Shown: one piece after another, positions 1 through 16,712 of the stretch
Layout: the number at the start of each line of letters is the position of its first letter
Numbering within the stretch: position 1 is the stretch's first letter
Source: a bacterium
GTDB taxonomy: Bacteria > SZUA-182 > DTGQ01
DNA: 64,000 nucleotides
Direction: 5' to 3'
Assembly (NCBI GenBank): GCA_040752695.1
Contig: JBFMGO010000008.1
Location: 26,184-90,183, forward strand
Notes under the pieces: generated by a model
Databases searched by the model: none
Told to the model about the DNA's origin: nothing
What the model saw: the letters and a program-made list of their open reading frames with translations, nothing else
Program-made: the position numbers and the translations under genes

Positions 1-189
1 GAACAGGTTTAACTGGGGATCAGCCTTGATACGCAGTTGAATGGCCTCTTTTTCGTACCGCCATTCCGGCGGAGCAGGGGCGACATACTGCCGGGGGGGA
101 GTAGAAGTTGTCGCGGCCTTCCGTTTGCGGGCACAGCAGGTCATAATGGTGATAACAATAAGAAAAAGCGCTATAAAGGATTTTTTCAT
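1..189 (-). CDS. tssJ: Probable T6SS outer-membrane lipoprotein TssJ (N-terminal part; runs off window)
   Basis: Not in the ORF track. Minus-strand ATG at 189 follows an AGGGGG RBS and reads MKKSFIALFLIVITIMTCCARK...PPEWRYEKEAIQLRIKADPQLNLF. This is a lipoprotein-type signal ending in Cys, followed by the L-x-I-x-A-x-x-x-L-N strand typical of TssJ/VasD. It sits next to FHA, PP2C and kinase genes. Confidence 0.65.
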   Translation of the reverse strand, partial: MKKSFIALFLIVITIMTCCARKRKAATTSTPPRQYVAPAPPEWRYEKEAIQLRIKADPQLNLF

Positions 190-216
190 CTTGTCCCCCT
201 ATTCAAAAATAGGTCT

Positions 217-1071
217 TTAATATATCTTTTGACAAACCTTTTCGAATTCCCGTAAGAGTTCTTCCATCAGACGGCCTGATTCGAGCCAGCGCATACAGGC
301 CTGATGTCTTTCTTTGTAGGATTCGTAGAGTTCAGCCTTGCGGAGCGGGCCAAATTTGAAGCCATGCGCTATCCCGGACCCCTTTGCTGCCGCTTCGATC
401 TGATCGGGACTCAACTCGGACAGGATTTCTCTTATCTTGGTACTGGCAGCCTGTTGAAAAGCCTGATGAGCAGCGAAAAAAGCTTTCTTAATCTGATCCA
501 GATAATTTTTCAGGGAAGTAGAGCAATTCTCCCCCTCAAGAGTGGAGCCGATGATCTGTCTGATTGTCTCCAGTTCGGGCTTCCGGCCAAGGAGGGTGGT
601 GTTGATAACCCCGATGATCTGATTAAGCGTATCAAAGATGACAGTCAGAGAAGAAGTCAGTTTTGCCAGAAGTTCGGTGGAGGAGAGATCCTCCCTGGCC
701 ACGGGTATCCCTACCAGTTGGGAAAATAACCGCGAAAACTCGGATGACTCATGTCCGGTTCGAGTGTCCGGGCCGGTGTGAGGGGCAATACCGGTTTGAG
801 GGACCATACCAGGTTGAAGAACCATACCGGCTTGAGGGGCCGTACCGATTTTGGGAGCCATACCGGCTTGAGTGTCCGAGCCGGTTTGAATGGCCGGATC
901 TTCCAGGCTCTTGATGAGTTGTTCCAAAAGGGCCTGTTTTTCCGCAGATGAGTGTTCCCGAAACCGCTCCACCAGGTATTGTCGAGTCAATAGTTCGGCC
1001 TGCGAAGGGTCCGTCCGGTAGATATTCCTGATGTCATCGGCTAACTCTGATAAAGAAATCCGGTCTGTCAT
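217..1071 (-). CDS. Hypothetical protein with TagH/Fha C-terminal-like helical domain
   Basis: 284-aa ORF. The C-terminus (AHQAFQQAA...LSPDQIE...RKAELYESYKERH...REFEKVC) resembles the T6SS FHA C-terminal domain. There is a central hexapeptide repeat linker (PQAGMV-like). Confidence 0.55.
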   Translation of the reverse strand: MTDRISLSELADDIRNIYRTDPSQAELLTRQYLVERFREHSSAEKQALLEQLIKSLEDPAIQTGSDTQAGMAPKIGTAPQAGMVLQPGMVPQTGIAPHTGPDTRTGHESSEFSRLFSQLVGIPVAREDLSSTELLAKLTSSLTVIFDTLNQIIGVINTTLLGRKPELETIRQIIGSTLEGENCSTSLKNYLDQIKKAFFAAHQAFQQAASTKIREILSELSPDQIEAAAKGSGIAHGFKFGPLRKAELYESYKERHQACMRWLESGRLMEELLREFEKVCQKIY

Positions 1072-1180
1072 GGTATCATGAACTCTCTTTTATCGTGGTA
1101 TCTATCTGCTACGGTATCTATCCACGGTATTGATCTGACATGGTATCTATCTGCCACGGTTTCTATCTGACACAGTATCA
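1069..1180. repeat. Degenerate 15-17 bp tandem repeat (cacggtatctatctg-like), about 6 copies, intergenic
   Basis: ggtatctatctg / ggtatctatcc / ggtattgatctg / ggtttctatctg recur between the two CDSs. Confidence 0.75.
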
Positions 1181-3379
1181 TGGACTGTCTTTTTTACGGT
1201 AATCTTCATTCGAACTCAGGATAACTGTTTCAGTAAGAAAATCATCACATTCCGAGTCAGGCTCTGACTCCGATACCGGCTCAGGCTCCGGGGCAGGCTC
1301 TGACACTGACTCAGGCTCTGGGGCAGGAGCCGGTTTTTCAGCCTCTTTGGCCTTTCCCCCTGCCCAAGGGATTCTCCGTACTCCGGGGGCTCCCCTGTCT
1401 TGAGGAGAGATGATAACCGTCTCAGGGATGTCATTATCATCTTCTTTATCTTCTTCTGCCCCGGCAGGTATAGTGTGGCTGTTAGCGGCCTGAGAAAAGG
1501 TGTTTTCCATCATGTTTTCGGATGAGATCATCACGGTTTCTTCGAGTTCGGTTGATATATCCTGCTTCTCATCAATTTCTGCCCGCCATTGGTTTAAAAC
1601 CTTGGTAAGGAGATCACGGATGGCCTTATTTTCGCCTGGATCATGCAAGAGGCTCTTCGTTTCCAGGTGGGAGTTTTCGGTATTTTTATCCATACCTGAT
1701 AACCGTAAGCAGTCACCGACATCTTCCTTTCCCTGAAGAAAGGCGTCTTTTACCTCTTCTTGCAGGGCCTTGAACTGCTCCCAAAATGCCTCCTTTGACC
1801 ATCGAGAGGAAGCATGACAGCCTGCATGGAGCAAAGACCACCCCAGACTGAGGCATCTTTCCCAGAAGATGCGGCCGTTTTCGGGAATTGCCCCTCTTTC
1901 AGGATTCCAGAAAATATTTTCAGGCATGAAGGTTTGGTTTCTCTGTGCCAGATCAAAACCAGATTGATGCTCACAGAAACCCGAGGAGGCGCTTACAGCT
2001 TCATCCATTGCCTTGAACACGAGAGCAGCATCCTGCTTTTGGTTGACCAGGAAAGTGGAGAACCAGACCAGTCCCAAAGATGAGAGACTTGATATTTGAG
2101 GGATTCGGGAAAATGGTGAGGTGCCAAGGTGACTTATTCCATTGATGCTATTGATTCCATTGATCCCATTGATTCCCAGGTCTATGGTCCCTACCGAGAA
2201 GCTCCAGAAGGGAGGAAGAAAGCTGGATTTGCCAGCCAGTCTGACCCATGTCCGGTCAAGGGAAAAATTCCGCTCCGGCTGCCGGTCAAGAGCGAACGCC
2301 GGAAGGGCCGTTTGCAGAAATTCACCAAGGAAGGAAAGCTTAAGATATAAAACTTCGTAAAAATGCCTTTCTCCCTGATTGTAAAAGGTAAACCTTTGTG
2401 CCGGGTATCTCTGACGGATCGCTTTCAAACACTGTGCCCTCCCTGATTCCAGGCCGTCCGTGAGCCCTGATTCACGTTCCTCAAAAGATGCCCCTGAGAC
2501 GAGGGCCAGAAAGTCGAGGGCATGAAGTGACATGGCATCAAAAACAAGCATGAAAAAGGAGTAAAACGCGAAGGGCAAAACCCGTGAAAGGCAACGGCTG
2601 TCCCTTCCATAGCACTCCTTTTTTTCAGTGCATTCGATGCAGGGGAATTGTCCGGGATGAATCTCATCTTCAAGCAATTGTCCGGGACGAATCTTATCTT
2701 CAAGCAGATGACCAAATCTCCGTATTAAATCCCGCCGGTCCATAAGATGTGGAGGGTCAGAGCTTTCCAAAGCAAAAGTATAGAAATTGCATTCCTCGCT
2801 CGATGCAGCGGCACACGCGGGACAATATACATACCGTCTCAGAGAGGTTGAATAAGGCCAAAGCCCTGATCTGATCAGAAGATCATCGTCATAGCATTGC
2901 TGAAGGGGACGTCCGCATCCGGGACATAGTGGATCGAAAAAGAGGTGTTTGTACCTGCAATAAAACAACGGTTGAAAGGGCACGAGCCATTCTTTTTTTT
3001 CCTGGAGATGAATTTGATGCGCGAGAATCATAACGGAACCATCGCCCTTATTCCTTCTCGTTTCGGAAAAAGCATTCTGCCAGGCATCGTCAATATCCCG
3101 GTTATTGAGCTGCTTTTGTATCTTCAGGATATCCCCGGAGAGGGAATAATCATCCTTTTGAATCAGGAGAAACACCCTCTTTATTTCACTTTCAGCACCG
3201 GTTAACAGCCGGGCCTCGATCAGGCGCGTAAAAGGCTCTGCATCACCGATAATCCGGAAAGGGAAAGAAGTGTTTTCCAGTCGTCCCTGGGAGTCCTCAC
3301 CGATGGGTGCAAACTGGATGGAGAAAGGTACTTTTTGAGTCTCAAGATAAGGGCGTAAGGAGGATAGGATATTTCCCAT
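1178..3379 (-). CDS. Hypothetical 733-aa Cys-rich protein, possible Zn-finger/pseudokinase with acidic Pro-rich tail
   Basis: Long ORF with CPGC, CPAC and CIEC-x4-C motifs, kinase-like remnants (NFSLDRTWV; SSLGLVWF), and a tail with ETVMIS, ETVIIS and ETVILS. Confidence 0.6.
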   Translation of the reverse strand: MGNILSSLRPYLETQKVPFSIQFAPIGEDSQGRLENTSFPFRIIGDAEPFTRLIEARLLTGAESEIKRVFLLIQKDDYSLSGDILKIQKQLNNRDIDDAWQNAFSETRRNKGDGSVMILAHQIHLQEKKEWLVPFQPLFYCRYKHLFFDPLCPGCGRPLQQCYDDDLLIRSGLWPYSTSLRRYVYCPACAAASSEECNFYTFALESSDPPHLMDRRDLIRRFGHLLEDKIRPGQLLEDEIHPGQFPCIECTEKKECYGRDSRCLSRVLPFAFYSFFMLVFDAMSLHALDFLALVSGASFEERESGLTDGLESGRAQCLKAIRQRYPAQRFTFYNQGERHFYEVLYLKLSFLGEFLQTALPAFALDRQPERNFSLDRTWVRLAGKSSFLPPFWSFSVGTIDLGINGINGINSINGISHLGTSPFSRIPQISSLSSLGLVWFSTFLVNQKQDAALVFKAMDEAVSASSGFCEHQSGFDLAQRNQTFMPENIFWNPERGAIPENGRIFWERCLSLGWSLLHAGCHASSRWSKEAFWEQFKALQEEVKDAFLQGKEDVGDCLRLSGMDKNTENSHLETKSLLHDPGENKAIRDLLTKVLNQWRAEIDEKQDISTELEETVMISSENMMENTFSQAANSHTIPAGAEEDKEDDNDIPETVIISPQDRGAPGVRRIPWAGGKAKEAEKPAPAPEPESVSEPAPEPEPVSESEPDSECDDFLTETVILSSNEDYRKKDSP

Positions 3380-3711
3380 TCTATCAGGATCCTTCGCGGC
3401 AAAAGAGGTAATGGGGCGCTCTATGACTTATGAGATTTTCCTGCCTGCCCCGTATAAAATGATGCCCTTTTCGGGCACAATTTGGAAGGTAATTCCCTCA
3501 TTCTGTTTCTTTAACCATTCTTATAACATATATTCCAGCCTTAAGTCAACGATAACTTATCCGAAAACGGGAATATTTTGGAATATTTAAAACTGGAATA
3601 GTATGGAATGTTAACGGAAATAGTACGAAATGTTAATTGAAGATATTGTTCATATATCGAAACAAAGGGAATACTACTATCGAAACAAGGGGAAAACTGC
3701 CCGATGGCGGT

Positions 3712-4839
3712 TTAATGTTTCCAGAGTTTCCTTAGAATTGAAAGTGAGCCTTTGATGTTTTTCTTTTCAGGGACATCCAGGGATTCTTTCTCCTCCGGTT
3801 TCTCTTTTTGATCTGCGGAGATTGAACGCTCATCGATGGGCTCTTGTATTTCTGCCAGACGGCCATCACCGAGAAAGCGAAATACAGGGCCCCGGGGACT
3901 GAGAGCCAATTCATCGCCGGGATTGAGAGGTGACTTGAGGTTGATGGTCTTTCGATTGACGGCAACTGATTTTTGTCCTGTGAGATCCTTGACCCAGTAA
4001 TGATCCTGGTTATAGAAAACCTGGACATGGTGACTATGGATGCCGGGATAGTCAAGCTGAAAATCGCCTTCCTTTCCAATAGTGACCGGTACCTCTTTGA
4101 AGGAACGAAGAGTAGGACCATACTGGATAATCAGAGGGACTCTCATGCTATGCACGGCGATCTCATCTATCTCGCCTGGTTCGGGTTGGATTGGACCGGA
4201 TTTTTGACCGGAAAGGTCAGGCTCTTGACTGGAAAGGCCAGGCTCCTGACACGAAAGGCCGGGCTCTTGACCGCAAATGCCGGGCTCCTGACTGAAAGAA
4301 ACGGGTGTATGTCCGGAAAGGTCAAGATCCCGAGGTGAAGAAGGTTTTAGCTTATCTTCCCCATAGGGCGAAGGTGGAAATGACGATGGCGGGGCGCATG
4401 ATGGCTGAGTGGCCGGGAACACGTTTTCCTGCCCCGGTTGACTTTCGCGTAACGGCTGATTTTCGAGTGCCGGTTGATTATCCAGTACCGGCTGATTTTC
4501 GGACACCGGCTGGTTTTCGAGTATCTGGGTCAGGAAGCTAACCTTGGGCCCGCCTTCTGAAAAGGACAATACATCTCCGCTTTTCAGATAAGCCTCTTTC
4601 ATCCTCTTACCATTGACGAAGGTGCCGTTGGTGCTGAGATCAATCAATTTAAAGCGATTTCCTTCGCGAATGATTTCAGCATGATTACGTGAAACTACGG
4701 TCAGGTCGGCAGGGAATCTCAGCAGGCTCGATGGATTGCGACCGATAGAGATGCTGCCCGCGGAAAACTCCTGAATTGTGCCTTTGAAAGGCCCCTGAAT
4801 ATGGACAAGTTGGATGACAATAACTGGCTGTTGCTTCAT
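3712..4839 (-). CDS. Double FHA-domain protein
   Basis: N-terminal FHA with GR...SRNH...STNGTFVNG, a repeat-rich linker (ENQPV, QEPGLS), and a second degenerate FHA (IGK...HSHH...VKDL). Confidence 0.9.
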   Translation of the reverse strand: MKQQPVIVIQLVHIQGPFKGTIQEFSAGSISIGRNPSSLLRFPADLTVVSRNHAEIIREGNRFKLIDLSTNGTFVNGKRMKEAYLKSGDVLSFSEGGPKVSFLTQILENQPVSENQPVLDNQPALENQPLRESQPGQENVFPATQPSCAPPSSFPPSPYGEDKLKPSSPRDLDLSGHTPVSFSQEPGICGQEPGLSCQEPGLSSQEPDLSGQKSGPIQPEPGEIDEIAVHSMRVPLIIQYGPTLRSFKEVPVTIGKEGDFQLDYPGIHSHHVQVFYNQDHYWVKDLTGQKSVAVNRKTINLKSPLNPGDELALSPRGPVFRFLGDGRLAEIQEPIDERSISADQKEKPEEKESLDVPEKKNIKGSLSILRKLWKH

Positions 4840-5081
4840 ATGGGTTTCGTCACAGTCTTTGCTGTCAGTCGAAGGCTCGGTTCATTTTTCAATTATAGCC
4901 CGAGCCTGATGGTTTTTGCAACAACAATGATAAAAAAATAATTATTTATAACACATTATCCAATATCATAAAATAGATTGACTTTTATTCTTTCTCGTGA
5001 GAAGATCAAATGTTATTATCCGTATTGGAACAAGTACCTAACTTTTATGCTCCTGGTTAATGCATACCGGTTGCATACGCG

Positions 5082-5816
5082 ATGCCTATGATAGCCTCTT
5101 TTGGACAATCAGATCCCGGCCTCATACGTCCTCATAATGAAGACAGCTTCGTAATCGTGCCAGAGGCAGATCTTCTTGCAGTGGCCGATGGAATGGGCGG
5201 GGCTGCGGCCGGGGAGGTGGCCAGCCGGATCTTCATCGAAACAGCTTCGATGCGTTCCTCCGGTTCCAGGTGTCAATCTGGGTGTCAATCTGAACAGGAA
5301 ACCCTTTTGAGGGATATCTTTCGATCAGCCAATGAAAATATCCTTAACCATACCAGGGCTAATCCTCACTGCCGGGGAATGGGATGTACGGCTGAACTTA
5401 TCATCTTCACCGGCCAGGGTTACATTCTGGGCCATGTAGGAGACAGCCGTACTTACCTGCTGAGGGCAGGACACCTGAAACAACTGACCCGGGACCACTC
5501 TTTAGTGCAGGATCAGCTAGACCAGGGTCTCATCAAACCTGATGAGGTCAGGAAGCATCCTTTCAAACATGTTATCCTCAGGGCCGTGGGTATCGAAGAA
5601 CGGCTGGCCCTCGATGTGGTAAGGGGCAAGACTTTACCAGGGGACCTTTTTCTCCTGTGCACTGACGGCCTGACGGATATGATCGACGATTCCCTTATCA
5701 AGGAAATACTTTTGCTTCCCCTGACTCTGGCCCAAAAAGGAAACAAGCTCATCGAGTCCGCCAAAGCAGCCGGAGGGCGTGACAACATAACCGTGGTTCT
5801 CGGTGAAATAACGTGA
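5082..5816 (+). CDS. PP2C-type (Stp1/PppA) Ser/Thr phosphatase
   Basis: RPHNED, VADGMGG, HVGDSR, LCTDGL and GGRDN motifs. Confidence 0.95.
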   Translation: MPMIASFGQSDPGLIRPHNEDSFVIVPEADLLAVADGMGGAAAGEVASRIFIETASMRSSGSRCQSGCQSEQETLLRDIFRSANENILNHTRANPHCRGMGCTAELIIFTGQGYILGHVGDSRTYLLRAGHLKQLTRDHSLVQDQLDQGLIKPDEVRKHPFKHVILRAVGIEERLALDVVRGKTLPGDLFLLCTDGLTDMIDDSLIKEILLLPLTLAQKGNKLIESAKAAGGRDNITVVLGEIT

Positions 5817-5893
5817 TTGACAGTGATATAACATGACTGGCTGGCAAGGTCTGGCTGGCAAGTAACCTGATTGGCAGGGTGATGTGATTTTCA

Positions 5894-6982
5894 ATGGATA
5901 AGTTCACAATTTGCTGGATAGTTCCGCTTATTCTCGCAGGTGCAGTGTTTTTAGCCGGTGCAGCACAACCTCCTGATTTATCCAAAGCCTACCCTTTTCC
6001 TCTTTTGGAGATGGAGGAAGTTATTTCACGATGGTTATTGCATAACAACTTTGAAGTTGCCCGCACTCCCCTCAAGGGCGGGCAGGTTCGGCTCGGGGCA
6101 GTGAGAGAAGACCAAAAGTGGCAGATAACGCTCAAACCTCGCTCTCCCCTTGCCTCTGAGGTCCATGCAGAATATACTCGCCAGGAAGGTCAGCCTGATC
6201 CGGCTGCCAATAAAGAATTGTGGGATCATTTACGAAGATATGCTCAAGATCCCTCTGCCGAAAGAGAGGATTTTGGAGTGCCGGCGCAGGTTTTGTCCCA
6301 GGGCACATCTGTCGTTTGTATCAGGGCCGGGCGGGATGGTACCGGGCAGGATGGGGCTGGCTGGCATGGCACCAGGCAGGATGGGGCTGGACAGAATGGT
6401 GCCGGGCAGGGCAAGTCAGGGTGCGATGGTGCCGGGCAGGACAAGTCAGAGCAGAACAGGGCCGGGAGGGAGACAAAACCCATTCAGTTTTCCGGTTTTA
6501 TCATTGACCGGGATGGTTTTATTTTGGCTACAGCCCATGACCTTGAAGGCATCCATGAGGTGAGAGTAATTCTGGACAATGGCCGCGAGCTGAAAGGGAG
6601 CATACGCAAGATCGATCATGACCGGGACCTTGCTCTCATTAGCGTCGGGGCCAAATTCGATACCTTTATCCCTCTGGCGAGGGGGCGAAACATCCTTGAC
6701 ATCGGGGAAAAGGTATATTCGATTGGCTGGCCCCTCAATCTGAGAGGAACAGTCCATGCCGGTTTCATTAATGGGCCACCCAGAAAGGTGAATACCCTGC
6801 CACTGTGGCAGGTGAACATGGAAATTCTTCCGGGAAGCAGCGGAAGTCCGGTATTCGATGCCAGGGGACAGATAGTTGCAGTCGTGAAAGGCAGGTACCG
6901 TGGAACGGATTCGGTGGGTTTTCTGATCCCGCTGGGAACGGTCAGGGAATTTTTAAGAGAAGGACACGCTTTAGATCAGTGA
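5894..6982 (+). CDS. Exported trypsin-like (S1C) serine protease without PDZ
   Basis: Signal peptide; catalytic triad TAH / DLAL / GSSGSP; pentapeptide GQDGA repeat insert. Confidence 0.9.
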   Translation: MDKFTICWIVPLILAGAVFLAGAAQPPDLSKAYPFPLLEMEEVISRWLLHNNFEVARTPLKGGQVRLGAVREDQKWQITLKPRSPLASEVHAEYTRQEGQPDPAANKELWDHLRRYAQDPSAEREDFGVPAQVLSQGTSVVCIRAGRDGTGQDGAGWHGTRQDGAGQNGAGQGKSGCDGAGQDKSEQNRAGRETKPIQFSGFIIDRDGFILATAHDLEGIHEVRVILDNGRELKGSIRKIDHDRDLALISVGAKFDTFIPLARGRNILDIGEKVYSIGWPLNLRGTVHAGFINGPPRKVNTLPLWQVNMEILPGSSGSPVFDARGQIVAVVKGRYRGTDSVGFLIPLGTVREFLREGHALDQ

Positions 6983-7063
6983 GGCGTACATCAGCAAAAA
7001 AGGAGGCAGGGCGGGAAAAGACCGCTCCAAAGACCCTCCCCCCTAAAAAAGGCGTACATTACC

Positions 7064-8449
7064 ATGTTATTACAATACAGTCGGTATCAGATAAAACGAG
7101 AGATTGGAAAAGGGGCTATGGGAGTGGTTTATCAGGCTCATGACCCCCAGATCGATCGGTTGGTCGCGTTAAAGGTCCTGCGCCCTGACCGGGTCACCAA
7201 CGAGGATTTTGTTCAGAGATTTTTCAAGGAGGCCAAAGCGATTGGCAGGCTTTCTCATCCCGGCATCGTTACCGTCTACGATGTGGGTCAGGATCAGGAC
7301 ACAGTATTTATCGCCATGGAATTTCTGGAGGGAAAGCCTTTGCATAAGGTCATTCAGGAGGCGAAGCCGGATCTTGAAACCATAGTCGATTTCGGCATCC
7401 AGGTGGCCTGTGCTCTTGATTATGCCCACCAGAAGGGAATAGTGCACCGGGATATCAAACCCGGCAATATCATCGTCCAGCCCGATGGCAGGTTGAAATT
7501 AACCGATTTCGGGATTGCCCGGATCGAAGATTCCACGGCAACGCAACAGACCAAAGTGGGAGAGATTCTTGGCAGCCCGGCCTATATGTCTCCCGAACAG
7601 GTGATGGGGCATTCCGTGGACGGACGATCCGACCTCTATTCACTGGGCATTATCCTCTATGAACTGTGCAGCGGGAAAAGGCCCTTCCATGGCGATAATC
7701 TGGCTGTCATCTTCAGGGCCATTACTCAGGACAATCCCGCTGAACCTTCAGCCATCGATCCGGCCATTCCGCATAAACTTTCGCAGGTAATCATGAAGTG
7801 CCTGAGCAAACAGCCCGAGATGCGCTTTCAGACCGGCAATGAACTGGCCGATGCCCTGAAAGCCTGCTTGAGGAAGGGTCCAGTCACCCACCCTGGGCCT
7901 GAGGGATCGAAAAGTTCAGCTTCGCCGCCTGACGAACCCAAAAGATCAGGGGACTCAAGCACAACCCTTGCCGAACCCAAAAGGTCAAAAGGACTGCCCC
8001 TTTTACTCCTTGTCGTGGTTATCCTGGCCAGTATAACGGCAGGATTCACCTTCTATCTCTTGCGCTCGCGAAAAGAAGCCCACCGCCTGCCTCCACAGGT
8101 TATGGAAGAGCAAAAAGCTCAGCCACCCGGGCCGGTTGCGGAAGAGGAGAAGGCACAACAGCCTCCTGGCCAGGTCACAGAAGAGCAGAAAGCGCAGCCT
8201 CCTGGCCAGGTCGTGAAAGAGCATCCGGTCATGGCTTTTCTCAAAGTCGAAAGTACTCCTTTGGGGGCTCAAATCTTCGTGGATGGAACCTTTCAGGGGA
8301 AAACGCCTGTTCGGTTTGACCTGTCACCGGGAAAACACGAAGTTCGGCTTACTTTGGCCGGGTATTACGATTGGGAAGCCCAGATCCAATTATCGGAAAA
8401 GGTCGAGACTCCTCTCCAGGTTCGATTGTTGCCTGCCGATGAGCAATAA
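7064..8449 (+). CDS. Membrane Ser/Thr protein kinase with C-terminal PEGA domain (PpkA/PknB-like)
   Basis: GKGAMG, VALK, HRDIKPGN, DFG, SPE and DLYSLG motifs; one TM segment; PEGA (VESTPLGAQIFVDG...G-H-V). Confidence 0.95.
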   Translation: MLLQYSRYQIKREIGKGAMGVVYQAHDPQIDRLVALKVLRPDRVTNEDFVQRFFKEAKAIGRLSHPGIVTVYDVGQDQDTVFIAMEFLEGKPLHKVIQEAKPDLETIVDFGIQVACALDYAHQKGIVHRDIKPGNIIVQPDGRLKLTDFGIARIEDSTATQQTKVGEILGSPAYMSPEQVMGHSVDGRSDLYSLGIILYELCSGKRPFHGDNLAVIFRAITQDNPAEPSAIDPAIPHKLSQVIMKCLSKQPEMRFQTGNELADALKACLRKGPVTHPGPEGSKSSASPPDEPKRSGDSSTTLAEPKRSKGLPLLLLVVVILASITAGFTFYLLRSRKEAHRLPPQVMEEQKAQPPGPVAEEEKAQQPPGQVTEEQKAQPPGQVVKEHPVMAFLKVESTPLGAQIFVDGTFQGKTPVRFDLSPGKHEVRLTLAGYYDWEAQIQLSEKVETPLQVRLLPADEQ

Positions 8450-8565
8450 AGAGAAGCGGCGGAAAAAAATGAGGAATAAGGGAAAAATGAGGAAAAACGG
8501 GGAAAAATAAGAAGGGATAAAAAGAAATGAGAAGGAATGAGAAGAAGTGAGAAGAAATAAAGGAG
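8447..8565. repeat. Polypurine degenerate ~10-bp repeat tract (aatgagaaga-like)
   Basis: Intergenic run that is almost all A/G, with recurring aatgag/agaag units. Confidence 0.7.
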
Positions 8566-8572
8566 CAATCGG

Positions 8573-10549
8573 ATGAAGATTATAACTAAGTGTCTTGCTT
8601 TCAGTTTGATCCTTACGGTTGGTTTGCTGCTTTTGGGAATGGAGGTGAGCTCCGGCCAGATTGCTCCAGGCCAGCCAGCCCCGCTCTTTTCCTTGAAAGA
8701 TATCACGGGAAAGACCTATGATCTGGCCTCGATGAAAGAGCGGCCCATGGTCATTCTTTATTTTTTCGATGCAGAATCAAGGCCGAGCCAGGAAGGTATC
8801 CTGAGTCTTAATCAATTAGCCGGACAATACAAAGATTATGACCTCTATTCACTGGCCATTACCCTCTCCCCGCGGGAAAAGATCGATCAGTTCAGAAAAC
8901 AGACCGAGCTTGGCTTTCCCCTTATCCAGGACACAGCCGGTGTCAGCGATCTCTATCAAGCCAGGCTGATTTTGCCGACTGTTTGCATTACCGGGCCGGG
9001 CCTGCGGGTTCTTGACTACTTTCAGGGCGGGGGGAAAACAACCGAAGTGATGCTGGTCAGGGTGGCCGAGCGGGAACTGCAAAGGAAACATACTGCCCTG
9101 GCCAAAGCTATCAGCGCGGAAGTGGTGAAAAAGGACCCGAAAAATGTCAAGGCCAGGACAGTGACCGGTTATGCAGCTCTCAAGGAGGGGAATCTCAAAC
9201 AGGCGGAAGAGGTTTTCCAGAATCTGGCTGAAGGGAGCGGCCAGGCCGAGATACTCGGCAAAGAGGGACTGGCCAGCGTTCATGTTCAAAAGGGAGAAAC
9301 TGCAAAAGCCATCGAACTGGCCGCGGAAGTGGAGAAAAAGGCCCCTGACAGAGCCTATGTCCATGTCATCAAAGGAGATCTCCTCTACAGCCAGGATAAA
9401 AAGAAGGAGGCCGAGGCGGAATATCAAAAGGCCATGAAAAAGAAGGAATCCGAGTCCTATCAGGAAGCGGTCAAACATAACCAGCTCGGACGGCTGTACG
9501 CAAGTACGGGCCAGTACCAGAAGGCGCGGGAGCTCTACGATCAGGCCGTGGCCATCGATCCCTATTACATAGAGGGAACGACCAACAAGGGGATAACCTA
9601 CCAGAAAGAGGGCAATTGGGATAAGGCGCTGGAAGCCTTCCAGCAGGCTGTAGCTGTCGACAAGAGCGATACCTTTGCCCTGGTCCTGTCCAAAAAGGCC
9701 CAGGAGATGCTGGAATTCCAAAAAGACACCGAGCGGAAAAAACGCATGGACCAAATGGTGAAGGATCTGGCAGCCAGATTCCGCAGCCAGCAAGAGACCA
9801 GGCCAATAGACGAAGATACCTGGACTTCCCGGCCTATGATCCTCACCTTTGTCGATTTTCAGGAAAAGGGCGGCCTGGCCGAGCGGGATGGTTTCTCGAC
9901 CGTGCTGACCACTCAATTGAGTGATTATCTTACTGCCTCAGGGAGGGTTCAGGTGGTGGAGCGCGTTTTGATCGAGCGTCTCATGGAAGAGTTGAACCTT
10001 GGTTCCTCGGATCTGGCTGACCAGGAAACCGCTCTCAAACTTGGCAGGGTGCTGGCTGCCAAATTAATCGGGACCGGCTCTCTTTTCTACCTGCCCGGCG
10101 GGACTCTCCTGAGTCTTCGGCTCATCGATAGTGAAACCTCGGCCATTCCCCTGGTAATTACCAGGCAATGCAGCCTCCAGGTTTCTCTGGAGAAAGAACT
10201 CTACGCGCTGAACCGGCAGATCCTCAGGACAGTCATGGAAAAGTACCCCCTGCATGGTTATCTGGTAGAAATCACGGGTGATGAGGCTCTGGTTAACCTT
10301 GGCTCCAGACAGGGAGTGGTTATGGGTACCCTTTTTGAAGTACTGGAAGAAGGCAAGACAATCAAATACAAGGGAAAGACGCTCCGGAGCGCACCGAAAT
10401 CCATCGCTCAGGCTGAAGTTGTCCGGGTTGAGCCTGACCTGTGCTATGTCCGGATTCTCAGCAAGGAAAGACCCCTGAAAACCGATGACAAGGTTCAGGA
10501 GAAAATTGCCGAAGCTGCGGCTTTGGGAGGAAGCGATGAATCTGAATAA
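8573..10549 (+). CDS. Exported thioredoxin-fold + TPR + CsgG/HfaB(FlgO)-like + FlgT-C-like protein
   Basis: Signal peptide; AhpC/TSA-like start (PGQPAPLFSLKD) lacking CxxC; several TPRs; VQVVER..IERLMEELNLG..LAD..TALKLGRVL; VNLGSRQGV..G..FEV. Confidence 0.8.
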   Translation: MKIITKCLAFSLILTVGLLLLGMEVSSGQIAPGQPAPLFSLKDITGKTYDLASMKERPMVILYFFDAESRPSQEGILSLNQLAGQYKDYDLYSLAITLSPREKIDQFRKQTELGFPLIQDTAGVSDLYQARLILPTVCITGPGLRVLDYFQGGGKTTEVMLVRVAERELQRKHTALAKAISAEVVKKDPKNVKARTVTGYAALKEGNLKQAEEVFQNLAEGSGQAEILGKEGLASVHVQKGETAKAIELAAEVEKKAPDRAYVHVIKGDLLYSQDKKKEAEAEYQKAMKKKESESYQEAVKHNQLGRLYASTGQYQKARELYDQAVAIDPYYIEGTTNKGITYQKEGNWDKALEAFQQAVAVDKSDTFALVLSKKAQEMLEFQKDTERKKRMDQMVKDLAARFRSQQETRPIDEDTWTSRPMILTFVDFQEKGGLAERDGFSTVLTTQLSDYLTASGRVQVVERVLIERLMEELNLGSSDLADQETALKLGRVLAAKLIGTGSLFYLPGGTLLSLRLIDSETSAIPLVITRQCSLQVSLEKELYALNRQILRTVMEKYPLHGYLVEITGDEALVNLGSRQGVVMGTLFEVLEEGKTIKYKGKTLRSAPKSIAQAEVVRVEPDLCYVRILSKERPLKTDDKVQEKIAEAAALGGSDESE

Positions 10550-11114
10550 AAGAGTATGGGTGGTTGTTATTCTCCTTTTGCTCGGTATTTCTTCTGCGTC
10601 CTGTGGGCCTGGCCGCCAATCCATGCCCATTGCAAATGGCCTTGCTGCTGGAAAGGGCGCTGCGACTGAAAAGGGGAACGCGATCGAAAAGGGCATCACG
10701 ATTGAAAAAGGGACTGCGGCAGCGGTTTGGGATTTCGATGACTTAAGCCCCTCTGCCGGTGACCGGCCCCCGCTGGGAGAACTTCTCTCCGCTCAGGTCA
10801 TGGAAGTACTCGCATCGAGTGGGGATGTCGTAGTCATCGAGCGGGAGCGGCTGCATCTGGCCCTTGAGGAACTCAAGCTGGGAACGACCTCGCTGGCAGA
10901 TGAGGCCACGCGCTTACAGCTTGGCAGACTGGCGGGAGCCCGGTTGATGGTCTTTGGAGCCTACCAGTCGATAGCCGGTACGATGCGCCTCGATCTGCGG
11001 CTGGTTGAGGTGGAAACAGGCAGGGTGCTCAAGGCAGTCAAAAGGGCAGCTTCGTCCGCTGATTTTTCCGCATGGCTTAAGGCCGCCCGGGAGGCCGCTG
11101 CCGACTTGCTGTAA
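10536..11114 (+). CDS. CsgG/HfaB-family lipoprotein
   Basis: ATG at 10536 overlaps the upstream gene end; lipobox-like SASC; AVWDFD, VIERERL..ALEELKLG, LGRLAGA and LRLVEVETG motifs. Confidence 0.8.
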   Translation: MNLNKRVWVVVILLLLGISSASCGPGRQSMPIANGLAAGKGAATEKGNAIEKGITIEKGTAAAVWDFDDLSPSAGDRPPLGELLSAQVMEVLASSGDVVVIERERLHLALEELKLGTTSLADEATRLQLGRLAGARLMVFGAYQSIAGTMRLDLRLVEVETGRVLKAVKRAASSADFSAWLKAAREAAADLL

Positions 11115-11287: not shown

Positions 11288-12469
11288 CTAAAATAGAGCG
11301 GTCAGCAGCGCGGTGAGAGAAATCCCTTCATAATCGCGGTCATTCTGATTCAGGACAAACCCCTTGACCAGAACATCCGCGTCGAAGCGGGAACTTATCT
11401 GTCTACTCGCACCGACTCCCAGAGAGAATTTTTGCTTCTTCCCTTGATACAGGGGGTCTTGGGAGGGATAGTCGTTCTCGTCCGCCCACAGAAATTCCAC
11501 CTGAGGTTTGAGAGAAGTCCGGGTGTTTAGTGCATATCGGTAGGAAAGACCGGCTATCCATTCGCTGCCGTGGCTGTTTTTATCTTCGGTCGAAAGGGCC
11601 GGAGTATAAGCCGCTCCTTCGGCTAATTTGCTTTTTCCCCGCAGGATGCTTTGCAGGTTGGCGCTCACATCCCACGCGCTCTGGTTATAGGTTATTCCCA
11701 GCCCCAGGAGAAAGAAATCCCCCTCCTGAAACGAATCTTTTCCTTTTACCGTATCTTTGCTGAAATAAGCATAGTCGGTGAAAAAGCGGGCCTGATAACG
11801 GCTGAGGAAATCGTATCTCAATTGTGCCGTGAAATTGAGAATGTCACCTGGATCATATTCTTTGAGCGTTGAGCAATAGTCGTACTTGCCCCGGAAGACA
11901 TAGCCGAGCCCAAAGCCATAAGCCCAATTCTCCCACTCTCTGGCCAGGGAAACAGTCGGGTTGAGGTTCAGACCCTCTCCAAAGCTGGTAACCGAAACAA
12001 GATCCTGTCCTTCAAGGAGAACCAGATCCTCTTCCTTCAGGCTGGTCCGGCCTGTAGGTAAATTGAGATCCAGGCCGAGAAGAAGATCGAAGGGCAGAGG
12101 CAATTGGCCGGAAACCGGGTAGGCGAAATTGAGCTTCGTGTCGAGGCTGGTGGCCAGAGACCGTGTTCCTCCACCTGAGAGCGTAAACTGGGTGTTGGCA
12201 AATCCTGCTAAAATATCAATGGAGAAATCCGAAAAGGTAAGCCCGATTTTGACCGGGAGAGTGAACTGATACCCTTTGGTCGCTTCTTTTGGCTGGTCAT
12301 CAGCCGGGCTATGGCCGCTGCTGGTAAACCAGTCGAACGTAAGGCCCGTTCGGGCCTCGATCTCGGCTGCCGAACATATCCATGTATTGGTATTCCGGGC
12401 CGTATTCAGAACGATAGCCGTACCCAGGATAACAGCCGACAAAACCATGATGAGCCGGTATCTTTTCAC
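11288..12469 (-). CDS. Probable outer-membrane beta-barrel protein
   Basis: Signal peptide, alternating aromatic/hydrophobic strands, C-terminal Phe. Confidence 0.7.
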   Translation of the reverse strand: MKRYRLIMVLSAVILGTAIVLNTARNTNTWICSAAEIEARTGLTFDWFTSSGHSPADDQPKEATKGYQFTLPVKIGLTFSDFSIDILAGFANTQFTLSGGGTRSLATSLDTKLNFAYPVSGQLPLPFDLLLGLDLNLPTGRTSLKEEDLVLLEGQDLVSVTSFGEGLNLNPTVSLAREWENWAYGFGLGYVFRGKYDYCSTLKEYDPGDILNFTAQLRYDFLSRYQARFFTDYAYFSKDTVKGKDSFQEGDFFLLGLGITYNQSAWDVSANLQSILRGKSKLAEGAAYTPALSTEDKNSHGSEWIAGLSYRYALNTRTSLKPQVEFLWADENDYPSQDPLYQGKKQKFSLGVGASRQISSRFDADVLVKGFVLNQNDRDYEGISLTALLTALF

Positions 12470-12537: not shown

Positions 12538-13524
12538 TTAGGGAAATTCGACAGGCGGAAATTCAACAGGATTAGTTTGACCGGGGCCATTTCCACTGCT
12601 TCTGACACCCGCTCGTTCTGCCCGTTTTATCACGTCTTCGGGCGTCAGTTGATCGGTGAGTGAAGTCTGATCCTTGATTGAGCGAAGGAAAGAATCACTG
12701 CTCTTCGCACGGGGGACCAGGCCAAGGTCCTGCAACTCTAAAAGAGACTCACGGGCACGACTGATCCCAGGGTCTGTTTTCAACGCCTGTTTATAAAATC
12801 TTGCCGCTTTGCGGTAATCCCCGCTGTCACTGGCTGCAATGCCCTGGAAAAAGGCCATGGCAGCTTTTATACTCGTGGTCAATGGCCTTTGTATCCTTTT
12901 TTCTTCCTCAGGAGTAAGTTCAACCATTAAAAAGGTAAGGATATCGGAAACAAGCTCTTTCTCCAAATCGAATAATCCGGCCAGATCACCTTCAGCGATC
13001 TTTTGTTTCAGAATTTCGGCGGTTGGAACATCCAAAAAGAGCGCCTTGATCTGCATCGCATGAGTTTGTCCATTCTGGAGATCTCCACCGATCAGGTGCT
13101 GCGCGCCCAATAATTTTCCGATCCGGGGGGCTTGATCCATATCCACAAGCCCGGACTTCCCAAGCTCCATTTCATCCACGAGCGCCTGGAGCTTAACCCT
13201 TTCCACAACCTGGATACTCTCGACCTGGGAAAGATCGGTAATGAGCATCAGGGCCAGCCCTTTTTGCAAGGGGTCCAGTTCCTGTTTTCCCGTCGTGTTC
13301 CGGAACGAGAGAACAGCAAGGGTATTGGACGCACCAGGTGCCCCAAGGCCCTTTTCTCCGGCCAGAACACTCTTGGCCCATGCTCTGTCTTCGTTCGTAA
13401 TTACCTGCCCAGCCCACGAGGATGAGAAAGAGGCAAGAATAATCCAAACCACGATACCGTAAAACAGGACATCAATACCGTAAAACAGGACATCGTATAA
13501 AGAGATAGATAACCGTCTATTCAT
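12538..13524 (-). CDS. CsgG/HfaB-family protein with TPR
   Basis: LAVLSFRN, LQKGLALMLITDL, VVERVKLQALVDEMELG, IGKLLGA; C-terminal TPR (AARFYKQALKTDP). Confidence 0.8.
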   Translation of the reverse strand: MNRRLSISLYDVLFYGIDVLFYGIVVWIILASFSSSWAGQVITNEDRAWAKSVLAGEKGLGAPGASNTLAVLSFRNTTGKQELDPLQKGLALMLITDLSQVESIQVVERVKLQALVDEMELGKSGLVDMDQAPRIGKLLGAQHLIGGDLQNGQTHAMQIKALFLDVPTAEILKQKIAEGDLAGLFDLEKELVSDILTFLMVELTPEEEKRIQRPLTTSIKAAMAFFQGIAASDSGDYRKAARFYKQALKTDPGISRARESLLELQDLGLVPRAKSSDSFLRSIKDQTSLTDQLTPEDVIKRAERAGVRSSGNGPGQTNPVEFPPVEFP

Positions 13525-16500
13525 TTTGCCTGCCCCGGCATGTGATTACCAGCCCCGCCATGAGATTCAGATACCTTCGCACTGAACTGCTGAAACAGCC
13601 TCCTCGCACTGAATTGATAAAACAGCCCCCTCCGGAAGAACCGGACTTACCCGGTATCTGGTCATCCTTGTACATGCTAATGTCTTCTTCGGGAGTTTCA
13701 GCACCGAGGGCATACACCAGGCCATCGCTGCTGCCGATATAGATCAGGCCGTTCTTTATGGCAGCAGAGGAAGCGACCCGGCCTCCGGTTTGATATCTCC
13801 ATTTCAGATTGCCGTTCTGTGGTGAAAGGGCATAAATCCATCCGTCGTTACTCCCTATGTAGACCGTGCCATCAGCCCCAATGGCTGGCGAAGACCAGAC
13901 ACTGCCTTCGGTCTGGTATCTCCATTTCACCCGGTCATTGGGGTCGGTGGCACCCGGATCGAGGGCATAGACACTGCCATTATCACTTCCCACATAGACC
14001 GTGCCGTCAGCCCCTATGGCCGGGGAGGAATCGATATCTCCGCACGTTCGATAGCTCCACTTCAGGCTGCCGTTGGGATCGAGGGCGTAGATACTGTTAT
14101 TGCTGCTGCCTATGTAGACCGTACCATCATTTCCTATGGCCGGTGAAGAGTAGAATCCGCCATTCACCTGAAATTTCCATTTCAGGCGGGTTGCGGGGTC
14201 TAAATCAATGCCTGATTTCAGTGCATAGACTATGCCGCCAGTACTTCCGACGTAGAGCGTACTGTCATCATTTCCTATGGCCGGTGAAGAGTAAACCTCA
14301 CCTTGTGCCTGATAATTCCATTTCATGGTACCGTTCGGATCGATGGCATATATCCTGCCAGACTCGCTGCCAACGTAAATCGTACCATCAGCCCCGAGAG
14401 CCGGAGAGGAGAATACATCGTCCATATCCGTGTTCATCGGTTGGCTATCACTGGCAGTATCGCTGATGACAGCAGGCGGGAAAATCCATCTCAGGCTGCC
14501 ATTTTCAGGTCTGAGGGCATAAATCCTGCCATCATTACTACCCGCATAGACAGTGCCGTCAGCCCCTATGGCCGGCGAGGAACAGACCTCGCCGCCGGTT
14601 TGACAGCTCCACTGCAGGTTGCCATCCGGATGAATAGCATATATTCTCTGATCGTCGCTGCCGATATAGATCGTTCCGTCAACACCGATAGCTGCCGAGG
14701 ACTCGACCGGACCTTCCGTCTTGAACTTCCATTGAAGAGTATTGACCTGCGCACCAGAGTATGGGCTCTGGCCGGTATGCCGGGCATCATGCCCCCGGCA
14801 TGGCCAGGCACTGTTGGCCAGTCCGCCCTCCGGCTCCAGCCTGGTATAGGTTTCTGTGGCTGTATCACTGGGTATCCATTCGCTTTTGAATCCTCTGGCC
14901 GCGATAGTGGTTGTATCGTTTAGAACCAGGGGAGCGGTATAAACCTCTGAATTTTCATCCGGCTCACTTCCATCGGTGGTGTAGTGGATAGTAACATCGG
15001 GAGTATCGCAACTGATTGAAACCGTTATTGATTCAGTGAAGCTGCCAGATACGGGGGATAATGAGGGCGTGGCTACTTTTTCCGGTGCAGGTGTATATGT
15101 ATAGATTTCTATTGCCGTATCACTCGGTATCCATCCGCTTTTGAATCCCCTGGCCTCGATAGTGGCGGTACCGGTTAGTTGGATGGGAGCGGTATAAACC
15201 GGTGAATTTTCATCCGGCTCACTTTCATCGGTGGTGTAGTGGATAGTAACATCGGGAGTATCGCAACTGATTGAAACCGTTATTGATTCAGTGAAGCTGC
15301 CAGATACGGGGGATAATGAGGGCGTGGCTACTTTACCTGCAAAGGCATAGACAGAGCCATCAGAACTTGCGATATAAACCGTGCCGTCAGCCCCTATGGC
15401 AGGCGAGGAAACAATCCCTCCGGTCTGGTAGCTCCATTTCAGACTGCCGTTCGGATCAAGAGCAATGACCTCGCCGCTTTGACTCAGAGAACTTCCGAAA
15501 TAAACCGTGCCATCAGCCCCTATGGCAGGTGCGGAAACGATCTCGCCCCCGGTCTGGTAACTCCATTTCGGATTGCCGTTCGGATCGAGAGCAGCGAGAT
15601 TATTCCCGGACATGCCGATATACATCGTGCCGTCAGTCCCTATGGCAAGTGAGGAAAAGGTCCCATACCCGTCCAGGAAGTGGTCCCATTTCAGAACGCC
15701 ATTAGGATCGACAGCATAAAGATCCCCACCTTCGCCGTAAGACCTTGCAACATAAATTGTGCCGTCTGCCCCGAGAGCCGGAGAGGAAACGGTCTCATTC
15801 CCTGCAAGATAATAGCTCCATTTCAGGCTGCCATTCGGATCGAGAGCAGTGAGATTGCTATCAGAACCCACGATATAAATCGTACCGTCAGCCCCTATGG
15901 CCGGTGAAGACCAGGTCAACCCGATTTCAAGCGGGTAGCTCCATCTAACGTTGCCATTCGGATCAAGAACATAGAATTTGTCATACAGGCCTCCGACATA
16001 AATGGTGCCATCAGCCCCTATAACGGGCGAAGAATCGATCCCGTTCCCGGTCAGATAGCTCCATTTCTTGCTGCCGTTCGGATTGAGGGCATAGAGATTG
16101 TGGTCCAGACTTCCGACATAAATGGTGCCATCAGCCCCTATGGCCGGGGAGGAAACAACCCCGCCTCCGATGGTCTGGTAGCTCCATTTCTTGCTGCCAT
16201 TCGGATCGAGAGCGAAGACCTCGCCGGTTTCACCGTAAGAAATTCCGATATACATGGTGCCATCAACCCCTATGGCCGGCGAGGACCAAACCCCGCTCCC
16301 GGTCTGATAACTCCACTTCAGGGTATTGGTTTGCGCTCCAAGGTATGGACTTTGACCGGTATGCCGCACATCATGCCCCAGGCATGGCCAGGCACTATTG
16401 GCTAATCCGCCTGACTGGGCAGAGCTTACTGCCGGTGCGTACATGAATGTACCGAAAAATACAAGGATAACCAGGAGAAGAGAGCATAAGGGATAAGAGT

Positions 16501-16549
16501 ATACAGAAAAGAAGAGACTCCTGGGACGGAAACAAGAAACTTTCTTCAT
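13517..16549 (-). CDS. Large surface protein: two PQQ-like beta-propeller blocks, two Fn3-associated/CHB_HEX_C domains, GGGCFI-type C-terminal motif
   Basis: Many SSPAIGADGTxYxGS...YALDP.G.LKW repeats; two VATPSLSP..IHYTTDGSEP units; C-terminal SGGGCFINS. The likely start is ATG 16549 (GAGGA RBS) rather than TTG 16603. Confidence 0.85.
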   Translation of the reverse strand: MKKVSCFRPRSLFFSVYSYPLCSLLLVILVFFGTFMYAPAVSSAQSGGLANSAWPCLGHDVRHTGQSPYLGAQTNTLKWSYQTGSGVWSSPAIGVDGTMYIGISYGETGEVFALDPNGSKKWSYQTIGGGVVSSPAIGADGTIYVGSLDHNLYALNPNGSKKWSYLTGNGIDSSPVIGADGTIYVGGLYDKFYVLDPNGNVRWSYPLEIGLTWSSPAIGADGTIYIVGSDSNLTALDPNGSLKWSYYLAGNETVSSPALGADGTIYVARSYGEGGDLYAVDPNGVLKWDHFLDGYGTFSSLAIGTDGTMYIGMSGNNLAALDPNGNPKWSYQTGGEIVSAPAIGADGTVYFGSSLSQSGEVIALDPNGSLKWSYQTGGIVSSPAIGADGTVYIASSDGSVYAFAGKVATPSLSPVSGSFTESITVSISCDTPDVTIHYTTDESEPDENSPVYTAPIQLTGTATIEARGFKSGWIPSDTAIEIYTYTPAPEKVATPSLSPVSGSFTESITVSISCDTPDVTIHYTTDGSEPDENSEVYTAPLVLNDTTTIAARGFKSEWIPSDTATETYTRLEPEGGLANSAWPCRGHDARHTGQSPYSGAQVNTLQWKFKTEGPVESSAAIGVDGTIYIGSDDQRIYAIHPDGNLQWSCQTGGEVCSSPAIGADGTVYAGSNDGRIYALRPENGSLRWIFPPAVISDTASDSQPMNTDMDDVFSSPALGADGTIYVGSESGRIYAIDPNGTMKWNYQAQGEVYSSPAIGNDDSTLYVGSTGGIVYALKSGIDLDPATRLKWKFQVNGGFYSSPAIGNDGTVYIGSSNNSIYALDPNGSLKWSYRTCGDIDSSPAIGADGTVYVGSDNGSVYALDPGATDPNDRVKWRYQTEGSVWSSPAIGADGTVYIGSNDGWIYALSPQNGNLKWRYQTGGRVASSAAIKNGLIYIGSSDGLVYALGAETPEEDISMYKDDQIPGKSGSSGGGCFINSVRGGCFSSSVRRYLNLMAGLVITCRGRQNE
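14860..15334. repeat. 255-bp-period near-identical direct repeat encoding the two Fn3-associated domains
   Basis: 14951-15079 and ~15206-15334 differ at only about one position by eye; the flanking parts are more diverged. Confidence 0.9.
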
Positions 16550-16712
16550 AACAGCATCCTCATGAGAATTGGCCTGTGATTCACAGACTCTATTTTCATC
16601 CAAGCGTACCTTTCAAGGAATGAAACGAAGGCTTTTTTCCTTCCAAAATGAATAGCGATATTTTTAATGGTGATATTTCCAAGCGGTATGATACCAGGAC
16701 ACGGATGGCGGG

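Follow-up and report, generated by a model that had tools for sequence, protein, structure and literature searches.

A predicted pseudokinase with a threonine-motif tail and a candidate three-gene Fha switch at the edge of a type VI secretion locus

The DNA analysed here is a 64,000-nucleotide stretch (hereafter the window; contig C8, positions 26184–90183) of a 6.0 Mb bacterial genome that is 96.6% complete, and its left end is the edge of a type VI secretion system (T6SS) locus. The assembly factor Fha, which is described elsewhere as an FHA domain, a disordered region, and a helical C-domain that binds TssL and TssE (bioRxiv 2023.12.21.572528), is here probably split over three genes, encoding an FHA reader, an Fha-C-like protein, and a pseudokinase with a threonine tail, whose products would be rejoined by threonine phosphorylation. 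A preliminary description of this DNA had proposed a split Fha; the functions do lie on separate genes, but the split appears to be three-way, and the part played by a 733-aa protein, listed there as an unknown, had been missed. The genes concerned are the following.

1–189, minus strand: 5′ part of tssJ (PF12790, E 1.8e-18; TIGR03352, 37.9 bits against a cut-off of 31.6).
217–1071, minus strand: 284-aa Fha/TagH C-domain-like protein without an FHA domain (PF20232 T6SS_FHA_C, 25.9 bits against a cut-off of 23.7).
1178–3379, minus strand: 733-aa predicted pseudokinase (residues 6–547) with a cysteine-rich insert, a conserved helix (residues 581–612), and a disordered tail with threonine motifs at T615, T654, and T718 (model, fold search, conservation, motifs, and synteny).
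3712–4839, minus strand: 375-aa tandem-FHA protein with an intact FHA1, a disordered linker, a degenerate FHA2, and a basic/aromatic C-terminal helix (PF00498, E 2.5e-26).

The disordered tail of the 733-aa family, which follows the conserved helix, carries repeats with the consensus L-x-E-T-V-I-L-S-P. We scored the motif as [DEK]-T followed by three hydrophobic residues in the last 140 residues of 250 homologs of at least 600 aa (259 were examined, and nine shorter ones were dropped). These tails contain 689 threonine motifs, with at least one in 236 of the 250; shuffled tails gave a mean of 6.4 (sd 2.6, maximum 15 over 200 shuffles), and the serine version of the motif occurs once. Three such motifs within 120 residues are found in only two of the 4315 reading frames of the host genome, one of which is the 733-aa protein itself, and the motif is absent from the host TssL, TssM, TagF, and 284-aa protein. 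The requirement for threonine over serine fits the phosphothreonine specificity of FHA domains, for which hydrophobic residues at pT+3 are described as determinants (PMC5549992). Tail-only genes (helix plus tail, 124–169 aa) occur in eight loci, internal deletions in eight more, and loss of the N-lobe in one, and the helix and tail are kept in all of them; the constant part of the family is the tail, not the kinase fold. A second pair of 733-aa and 284-aa genes resides in the same genome on contig C31 (L089:13072–16175), divergent from Hsp70- and GrpE-like genes; it is 42–45% identical, its tail is devoid of threonine motifs, and the 20 kb read contains no tss genes.

A candidate reader of phosphorylated tail sites is the tandem-FHA protein, listed earlier as the product of a double-FHA gene. 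Two FHA-fold domains are present, but only the first keeps the residues of a phosphothreonine reader, described as a conserved Gly-Arg, Ser-x-x-His, and Asn (PMC5549992): in FHA1, G33, R34, S50, R51, and H53 are found in 30 of 30 orthologs and N71 in 29 of 30, and the domain is thus predicted to bind phosphothreonine. The equivalent R, S, and N are lost from FHA2. The repeats could instead form short beta-strands for phosphorylation-independent docking onto a T6SS component or the degenerate FHA2; the kinase would then have a different target, for example TssL, the 284-aa protein, or itself. The three hydrophobic positions that follow the threonine would suit strand addition, FHA2 without its phosphate-binding residues resembles the EssC FHA domains reported to bind the EssB pseudokinase without phosphothreonine (PMC10765036), and the Fha of Vibrio cholerae is described as functioning without a cognate kinase (PMC13389060). 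We nevertheless regard docking as unlikely, given the strict preference for threonine (689 to 1), the intact FHA1 in every ortholog, and the absence of the motif from the T6SS proteins named above.

The 733-aa protein had been called an unknown, and it has indeed no family match: Pfam and NCBIfam gave none, a PDB sequence search gave nothing below E 0.46, the ESM Atlas had no usable match for the family (the Atlas's own model is poor), and the plasmid collection had no match. It is not featureless, though, being a predicted pseudokinase with likely phospho-acceptor repeats, and its unannotated family is large (576 clusters at 50% identity with E ≤ 1e-30). An AlphaFold model built from 84 sequences (pLDDT 75, pTM 0.74) was used for a fold search, in which residues 6–547 matched a protein kinase best (Z 15.1, rmsd 3.6, 262 residues aligned) and all 50 listed matches were kinase-fold chains, which points to a two-lobed kinase topology; Foldseek agreed weakly with kinases (best E 0.027). 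Active Hanks-type kinases have a beta-3 Lys, a catalytic-loop Asp and Asn, and a DFG Asp. At the corresponding positions, mapped on the model by secondary-structure order and not by residue-level superposition, the family has Leu or Gln in beta-3, the catalytic-loop Asp in 8 and the Asn in 7 of 223 sequences (never both in one), and the DFG-like Asp in 144. Because the catalytic residues are apparently lost at the mapped positions, we call the protein a predicted pseudokinase. That it is an active, atypical kinase phosphorylating its own tail or T6SS parts seems very improbable: the modelled fold spans both lobes, the polar residues N93, E342, K347, and N446 are invariant, and the DFG-like Asp is often kept, but the other catalytic residues are missing as described and the domain is wholly or partly deleted in 17 of 75 loci.

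Nine cysteines of the predicted pseudokinase, each present in 220–223 of the 223 sequences, likely form metal sites. The only hydrophobic segment is marginal and is located in a strand by the model, and the protein appears to be soluble; it thus differs from EssB/YukC, which combines a pseudokinase with one transmembrane (TM) helix and an extracellular domain at a T7SSb locus, and it belongs to a T6SS locus. Since some lineages lose the pseudokinase/cysteine part while the helix and tail persist, this part would be a non-catalytic modulator.

The 284-aa protein had been taken to be TagH-C-like. Its PF20232 match lies narrowly above the cut-off and covers just profile positions 99–173 of 180, leaving the N-terminal half unmatched, and a profile comparison with three fused TagH proteins aligned it to their last 81 columns (E 0.0018, probability 14.7%). 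PF20232 matched at E ≤ 0.001 in 8 of the 12 sampled genomes that carry the family and above the cut-off in six. The gene lies just 5′ of tssJ, the position of fha in other systems. The protein has 382 homologs of similar length; no longer, fused relatives were found among 7993 candidates of 551–2000 aa, which is weak evidence. The model is all-helical, and a fold search returned generic helical matches only (best Z 6.5), which was uninformative. Taken together, the sequence comparisons make a partial homology to the Fha C-domain likely. Neither chain is a single-chain Fha/TagH, in which an FHA domain, a disordered linker, and a C-terminal helical domain are joined: against the TIGR03354 cut-off of 120.25 bits, the 375-aa protein scores 65.7 bits and the 284-aa protein 13.5 bits, and the 733-aa gene separates the FHA gene from the 284-aa gene.

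All open reading frame positions given in the preliminary description were confirmed, as was its reading of the window as a T6SS edge with a TssJ-like start at 189. The full-length TssJ is a 214-aa protein whose gene runs off the left edge of the window. Inspection of the contig left of position 1 revealed, on the same strand within 26 kb, tssJ, tssK, tssL, tssM, tagF, tagJ/impE, tssA, tssB, tssC, hcp, tssE, tssF, tssG, clpV, an M35-like peptidase gene, vgrG, and genes for DUF6484, DUF2169, PAAR-like, and AHH-like nuclease proteins. The tss core, the TssJ similarity, and the T6SS_FHA_C similarity, on which that reading had been made to depend, were thus all found. Pfam and NCBIfam identified 13 of 13 core genes (tssA–M) of a Proteobacteria-like T6SS, subtype i; TssM scored 347 bits, below the TIGR03348 cut-off of 388, yet matched PF14331 at E 1.2e-64. 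The assembly holds one full T6SS only. The peptidase gene between clpV and vgrG and the DUF6484, DUF2169, PAAR-like, and nuclease genes 3′ of vgrG form a candidate effector region (L001:441–1052, L002:450–4613). Contig C110:2397–16200 (L093) of the host carries divergent ClpV-, TssC-, and TssE-like genes (25–37% identical) without a second tssJKLM, i.e., a partial or other contractile system. As the gaps between the 733-aa and 284-aa genes and between the 284-aa gene and tssJ are just 106 and 27 bases, these three genes likely form one operon; a promoter scan gave 12 sites against a chance expectation of 10.8 and was uninformative.

We then compared the best 80 of 163 loci found with a 284-aa alignment, some of which share a genome and two of which have doubtful names. 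The records belong to five phyla and are named Desulfobacterota, Nitrospirota, Brocadia, Methylomirabilis, and Deferribacteres, among others. The gene order is kept in part: tssJ lies 3′ of the 284-aa gene in 78 of the 80 loci (the other two end at a contig edge) and a 733-aa-family gene directly 5′ of it in 75 (the misses being four contig edges and one real absence, L077), but the tandem-FHA gene is directly 5′ of the 733-aa gene in just three. The contiguous layout of the window is therefore uncommon, and its gene order is ruled out as typical. The tandem-FHA gene is nonetheless present in 45 of 50 genomes selected by the 284-aa gene (50 of the 80 loci given), often at the opposite end of the cluster, 30–50 kb away, and sometimes unlinked. 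In loci L009–L088, one membrane-complex block is followed, 3′ of tagF, by either of two sheath/TssA sets (tagJ with a TssA of ~450 aa and a TssB of ~175 aa, or no tagJ with a TssA of ~520 aa and a 161-aa TssB), which suggests recombination at tagF.

On the other side of the FHA gene, beginning with the divergent PP2C gene, lies a set of kinase, phosphatase, and envelope genes.

5082–5816, plus strand: PP2C-type Ser/Thr phosphatase (NF033484, 237 bits against a cut-off of 230; metal-binding motifs present).
5894–6982, plus strand: exported trypsin-like protease with an extra N-terminal domain (PF13365, E 2.6e-18; N-terminal hydrophobic segment).
7064–8449, plus strand: inner-membrane Hanks-type Ser/Thr kinase with one TM helix (~310) and a C-terminal PEGA domain (PF00069, E 5.4e-55; PF08308, E 3.8e-14).
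8573–10549, plus strand: exported protein with a thioredoxin-like domain without CxxC, TPR repeats, and CsgG-like and FlgT_C-like domains (Pfam).
10536–11114, plus strand: small CsgG-like predicted lipoprotein (PF03783, E 1.1e-12; Cys after a hydrophobic leader in orthologs).
11288–12469, minus strand: predicted outer-membrane beta-barrel of an unnamed family (PF13505, E 2e-5, below the cut-off; Atlas structure neighbours are barrels).
12538–13524, minus strand: exported CsgG-like/TPR protein encoded by the barrel's partner gene (PF03783, E 4e-11; adjoins the barrel in other loci).

Pfam and NCBIfam thus corroborate the PP2C, protease, kinase-PEGA, and TPR/CsgG genes of the preliminary description, which had called the module expanded and ended it at 10549. 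It contains only one kinase and one phosphatase, so there is no expansion in active enzymes, and the parts named do lie within 1–10549 but the module continues to the lipoprotein, the barrel, and the CsgG-TPR gene. The likely start of the lipoprotein is 10536 by start context (10485 according to the ORF caller). The catalytic residues of the kinase (K37, E56, D130, N135, and D148) are found in 12 of 12 sequences and the protease triad (H215, D245, and S316) in 11 of 11; by sequence, the module has a T6SS-linked membrane Ser/Thr kinase with intact catalytic residues and a PP2C-type phosphatase. Redox sensing by the thioredoxin-like domain was ruled out because CxxC is absent in 11 of 11. In 20 regions around the tandem-FHA gene, taken from the 45 FHA-positive genomes with long contigs chosen, PP2C was found in 18, kinase-PEGA in 14, TPR-CsgG in 11, and the protease in 10. 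The protease is missing from the PP2C–kinase junction in three of these (L126, L135, and L140) and found in 9 of the 12 genomes sampled below, which rules it out as an obligatory sensor. No match to TagQRST-, RtkS-, or TssW-like families appeared among 31 cluster proteins scanned with Pfam and NCBIfam, and no genome-wide search was aimed at them.

Several other genes adjoin these parts. A TssB-TssC fusion gene (VipA and VipB domains in one chain of 520–580 aa) lies directly 3′ of the tandem-FHA gene in 7 of the 20 regions (L124:10537–12117, L126, L132, L133, L135, L137, and L139), and LysM-TPR, LysM-polysaccharide deacetylase, and Cache-guanylate-cyclase genes with another kinase are found nearby in up to 8 (L129, L131, and L135–L140). 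A 1028-aa beta-propeller/Fn3-like exported protein (13517–16603, minus strand) overlaps the start of the CsgG-TPR gene, and two relatives have the gene of a beta-helix (DUF1565) protein between the CsgG-TPR gene and the barrel (L030:3535, L038:4456); both are possibly variable surface cargo or a sensor of the barrel. The host copies of the products of 217–1071, 3712–4839, 5894–6982, and 7064–8449 have short tandem peptide repeats in linkers that are absent from orthologs. The stretch from 18599 to 63190 looks unremarkable; it encodes Suf, TonB, ABC, and MacAB-TolC transporters, a pair of PAS hybrid kinases, an MrfA-like helicase, pyruvate carboxylase, and a multiheme cytochrome, and includes six ORFs without a Pfam match at E 1e-6.

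The tie of the kinase, phosphatase, and TPR-CsgG genes to the T6SS type, proposed earlier, is upheld by co-occurrence across genomes. In a sample of 251 genomes of the phylum to which a Desulfobacterium record belongs, 28 have TssK and 12 the 284-aa family, and the same 12 have the 733-aa family (three tail-only). Tandem FHA was found in 11 of the 12, full-length TPR-CsgG in 10, and the barrel in 9, each against none of the other 239; partial matches to TPR-CsgG in ten other genomes lie inside different, longer proteins. In a set of 47 genomes (the 12, the 16 other TssK genomes, and 19 without TssK), the protease occurred in 9 of 12 and the full-length kinase-PEGA in 10 of 12, compared to 0 of 35 controls, while other kinases match in many. 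Within the 251-genome sample, full-length Fha was not found in the 12 split-type genomes; fused TagH occurs in three genomes, all among the 16 other TssK genomes, and a fourth has an FHA protein 5′ of tssJ. Three of five kin of the host have the 733-aa gene and also carry the FHA and TPR-CsgG genes, and the other two carry none.

A quick TssK tree of 84 rows placed all 69 split-type rows in one clade (99% SH-aLRT). Nested in this clade are three T6SSs with none of the parts looked for, which implies at least two losses, and the cassette is retained at distances of 30–50 kb, 220 kb, or about 530 kb and when located on separate scaffolds; these two observations are the independent co-occurrence signal. 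The cassette could also be a general signalling unit that shares the island without controlling T6SS assembly, leaving the 733-aa and 284-aa genes as the only T6SS accessories. Inheritance in one clade would allow this, as would the few loci in which the cassette adjoins the 733-aa/284-aa pair and the barrel look-alikes found in Gemmatimonadota, Rhodothermota, and Zixiibacteriota. Its retention when distant, its absence from the other genomes searched, and the three nested T6SSs that lack the module argue against it, and we hold such a bystander role to be quite improbable.

From their location and co-occurrence, the barrel, the CsgG-like lipoprotein, the TPR proteins, and optionally the protease are likely the envelope input of the proposed three-gene switch. 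They would pass an envelope cue to the PEGA domain of the membrane kinase, whose proposed substrates are the E-T-V-I-L threonines of the 733-aa protein's tail. Once phosphorylated, these sites would be bound, several at once, by the intact FHA1 of the tandem-FHA protein. The 284-aa protein, likely co-transcribed, is probably attached to the conserved helix that precedes the tail and would in this way become concentrated at the membrane. There it would contact TssL and baseplate components and overcome TagF, a role that full-length Fha plays in other systems, and assembly would start; PP2C would reset the switch.

Several points weigh against this reading. The Fha-C homology is weak and partial, by both bit score and profile comparison. 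The kinase fold depends on a predicted model with positions mapped by secondary-structure order, and a profile–profile comparison of the 733-aa family with 35 kinase domains gave a probability below 1%. The motif pattern was fixed after inspection of the tails, and the paralogous pair on contig C31 has neither motifs nor adjacent tss genes. The FHA gene is missing from 5 of 50 genomes, which are incomplete assemblies. A CHASE2-domain Ser/Thr kinase gene, mostly with a LysM-FecR gene, lies directly 5′ of the 733-aa gene in 6 of the 80 loci (L009, L022, L026, L027, L055, and L056), so the cognate kinase is not certain. Finally, with one TssK clade, most of the co-occurrence can be co-inheritance, and the kin are not independent.

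The host, earlier suggested to be an anaerobe, is likely one, consistent with no COX1 match in its genome and the presence of acetyl-CoA synthase. It probably lies outside Desulfobacterota, as the search for its kin yielded 19 genomes of its class before widening to the whole domain. More tentatively, the locus may exemplify a widespread, undescribed T6SS subtype of anaerobes (with records from Desulfobacterota, Nitrospirota, anammox Brocadia, Methylomirabilota, and Deferribacterota) that assembles its Fha in trans. The pseudokinase would bind metal and carry a tail with multiple phosphothreonine sites, and this tail would act as a threshold switch, condensing the tandem-FHA reader and the Fha-C effector under the drive of the barrel/CsgG/TPR envelope relay; the cysteine-rich pseudokinase itself would provide a second input, from metal or redox state.

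How Fha phosphorylation triggers T6SS assembly is still described as unclear (PMC13584744). With the reader, phospho-acceptor, and effector on separate genes, each step could be tested alone, and the tail-only versions of ~130 aa offer a minimal substrate. An unannotated protein family can now be listed as a predicted T6SS pseudokinase, and the analysis suggests that, beside TagQRST and RtkS, a third type of envelope input exists, in carriers (sulfate reducers, syntrophs, and anammox bacteria) where T6SS control is little studied. We found no published description of a T6SS pseudokinase, a three-gene Fha, or this envelope cassette; subscription papers and supplements, such as the Fha lists of the Acidovorax preprint, lay outside the search and could mention these genes. 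The word "pseudokinase" is absent from a 2026 review of accessory factors, and a paper on the Geobacter metallireducens T6SS contains neither "FHA" nor "kinase".

The system would work like a threonine phosphorylation pathway, yet it lacks a single-chain Fha. In that pathway, PpkA is described as phosphorylating Fha or TssL, PppA as reversing this, and TagF as opposing assembly (PMC13584744, PMC5995506, PMC6082577, PMC3953482, PMC12607579). As in the PpkA/PppA/Fha (TagE/TagG/TagH) and TagF pathway of Pseudomonas aeruginosa H1, Serratia marcescens, and Acidovorax citrulli, a membrane Ser/Thr kinase, a PP2C, an FHA protein, tagF after tssM, and an Fha-C-like gene before tssJ are found here (PMC13584744, PMC6082577, PMC12607579); in contrast, a separate protein with a pseudokinase fold carries the likely phospho-sites, which are repeated, the kinase carries PEGA, and the envelope genes encode a barrel, CsgG-like/TPR proteins, and a protease. 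In Agrobacterium tumefaciens, FHA reads the phosphothreonine of another protein (TssL Thr14, followed by hydrophobic residues; PMC3953482), as we propose here; the pathway described there has a single site, located on a core protein, together with a full-length Fha, whereas here 2–5 sites lie on an accessory tail and TssL has no motif. An FHA-less C-part is also known from V. cholerae, where the product from Met262 (Fha-S) acts in assembly and binds TssE (PMC13389060); it is reported to be translated internally from the gene that also yields the full-length form (Fha-L), with no kinase involved, whereas here the C-part has its own gene. The pairing of a pseudokinase fold with tandem FHA domains in a secretion machine recalls EssB/YukC and EssC of T7SSb (PMC10765036), by analogy only: EssB is a membrane protein and the EssC FHA domains are described as lacking phosphate-binding residues, whereas the 733-aa protein appears to be soluble and cysteine-rich, with a threonine-repeat tail.

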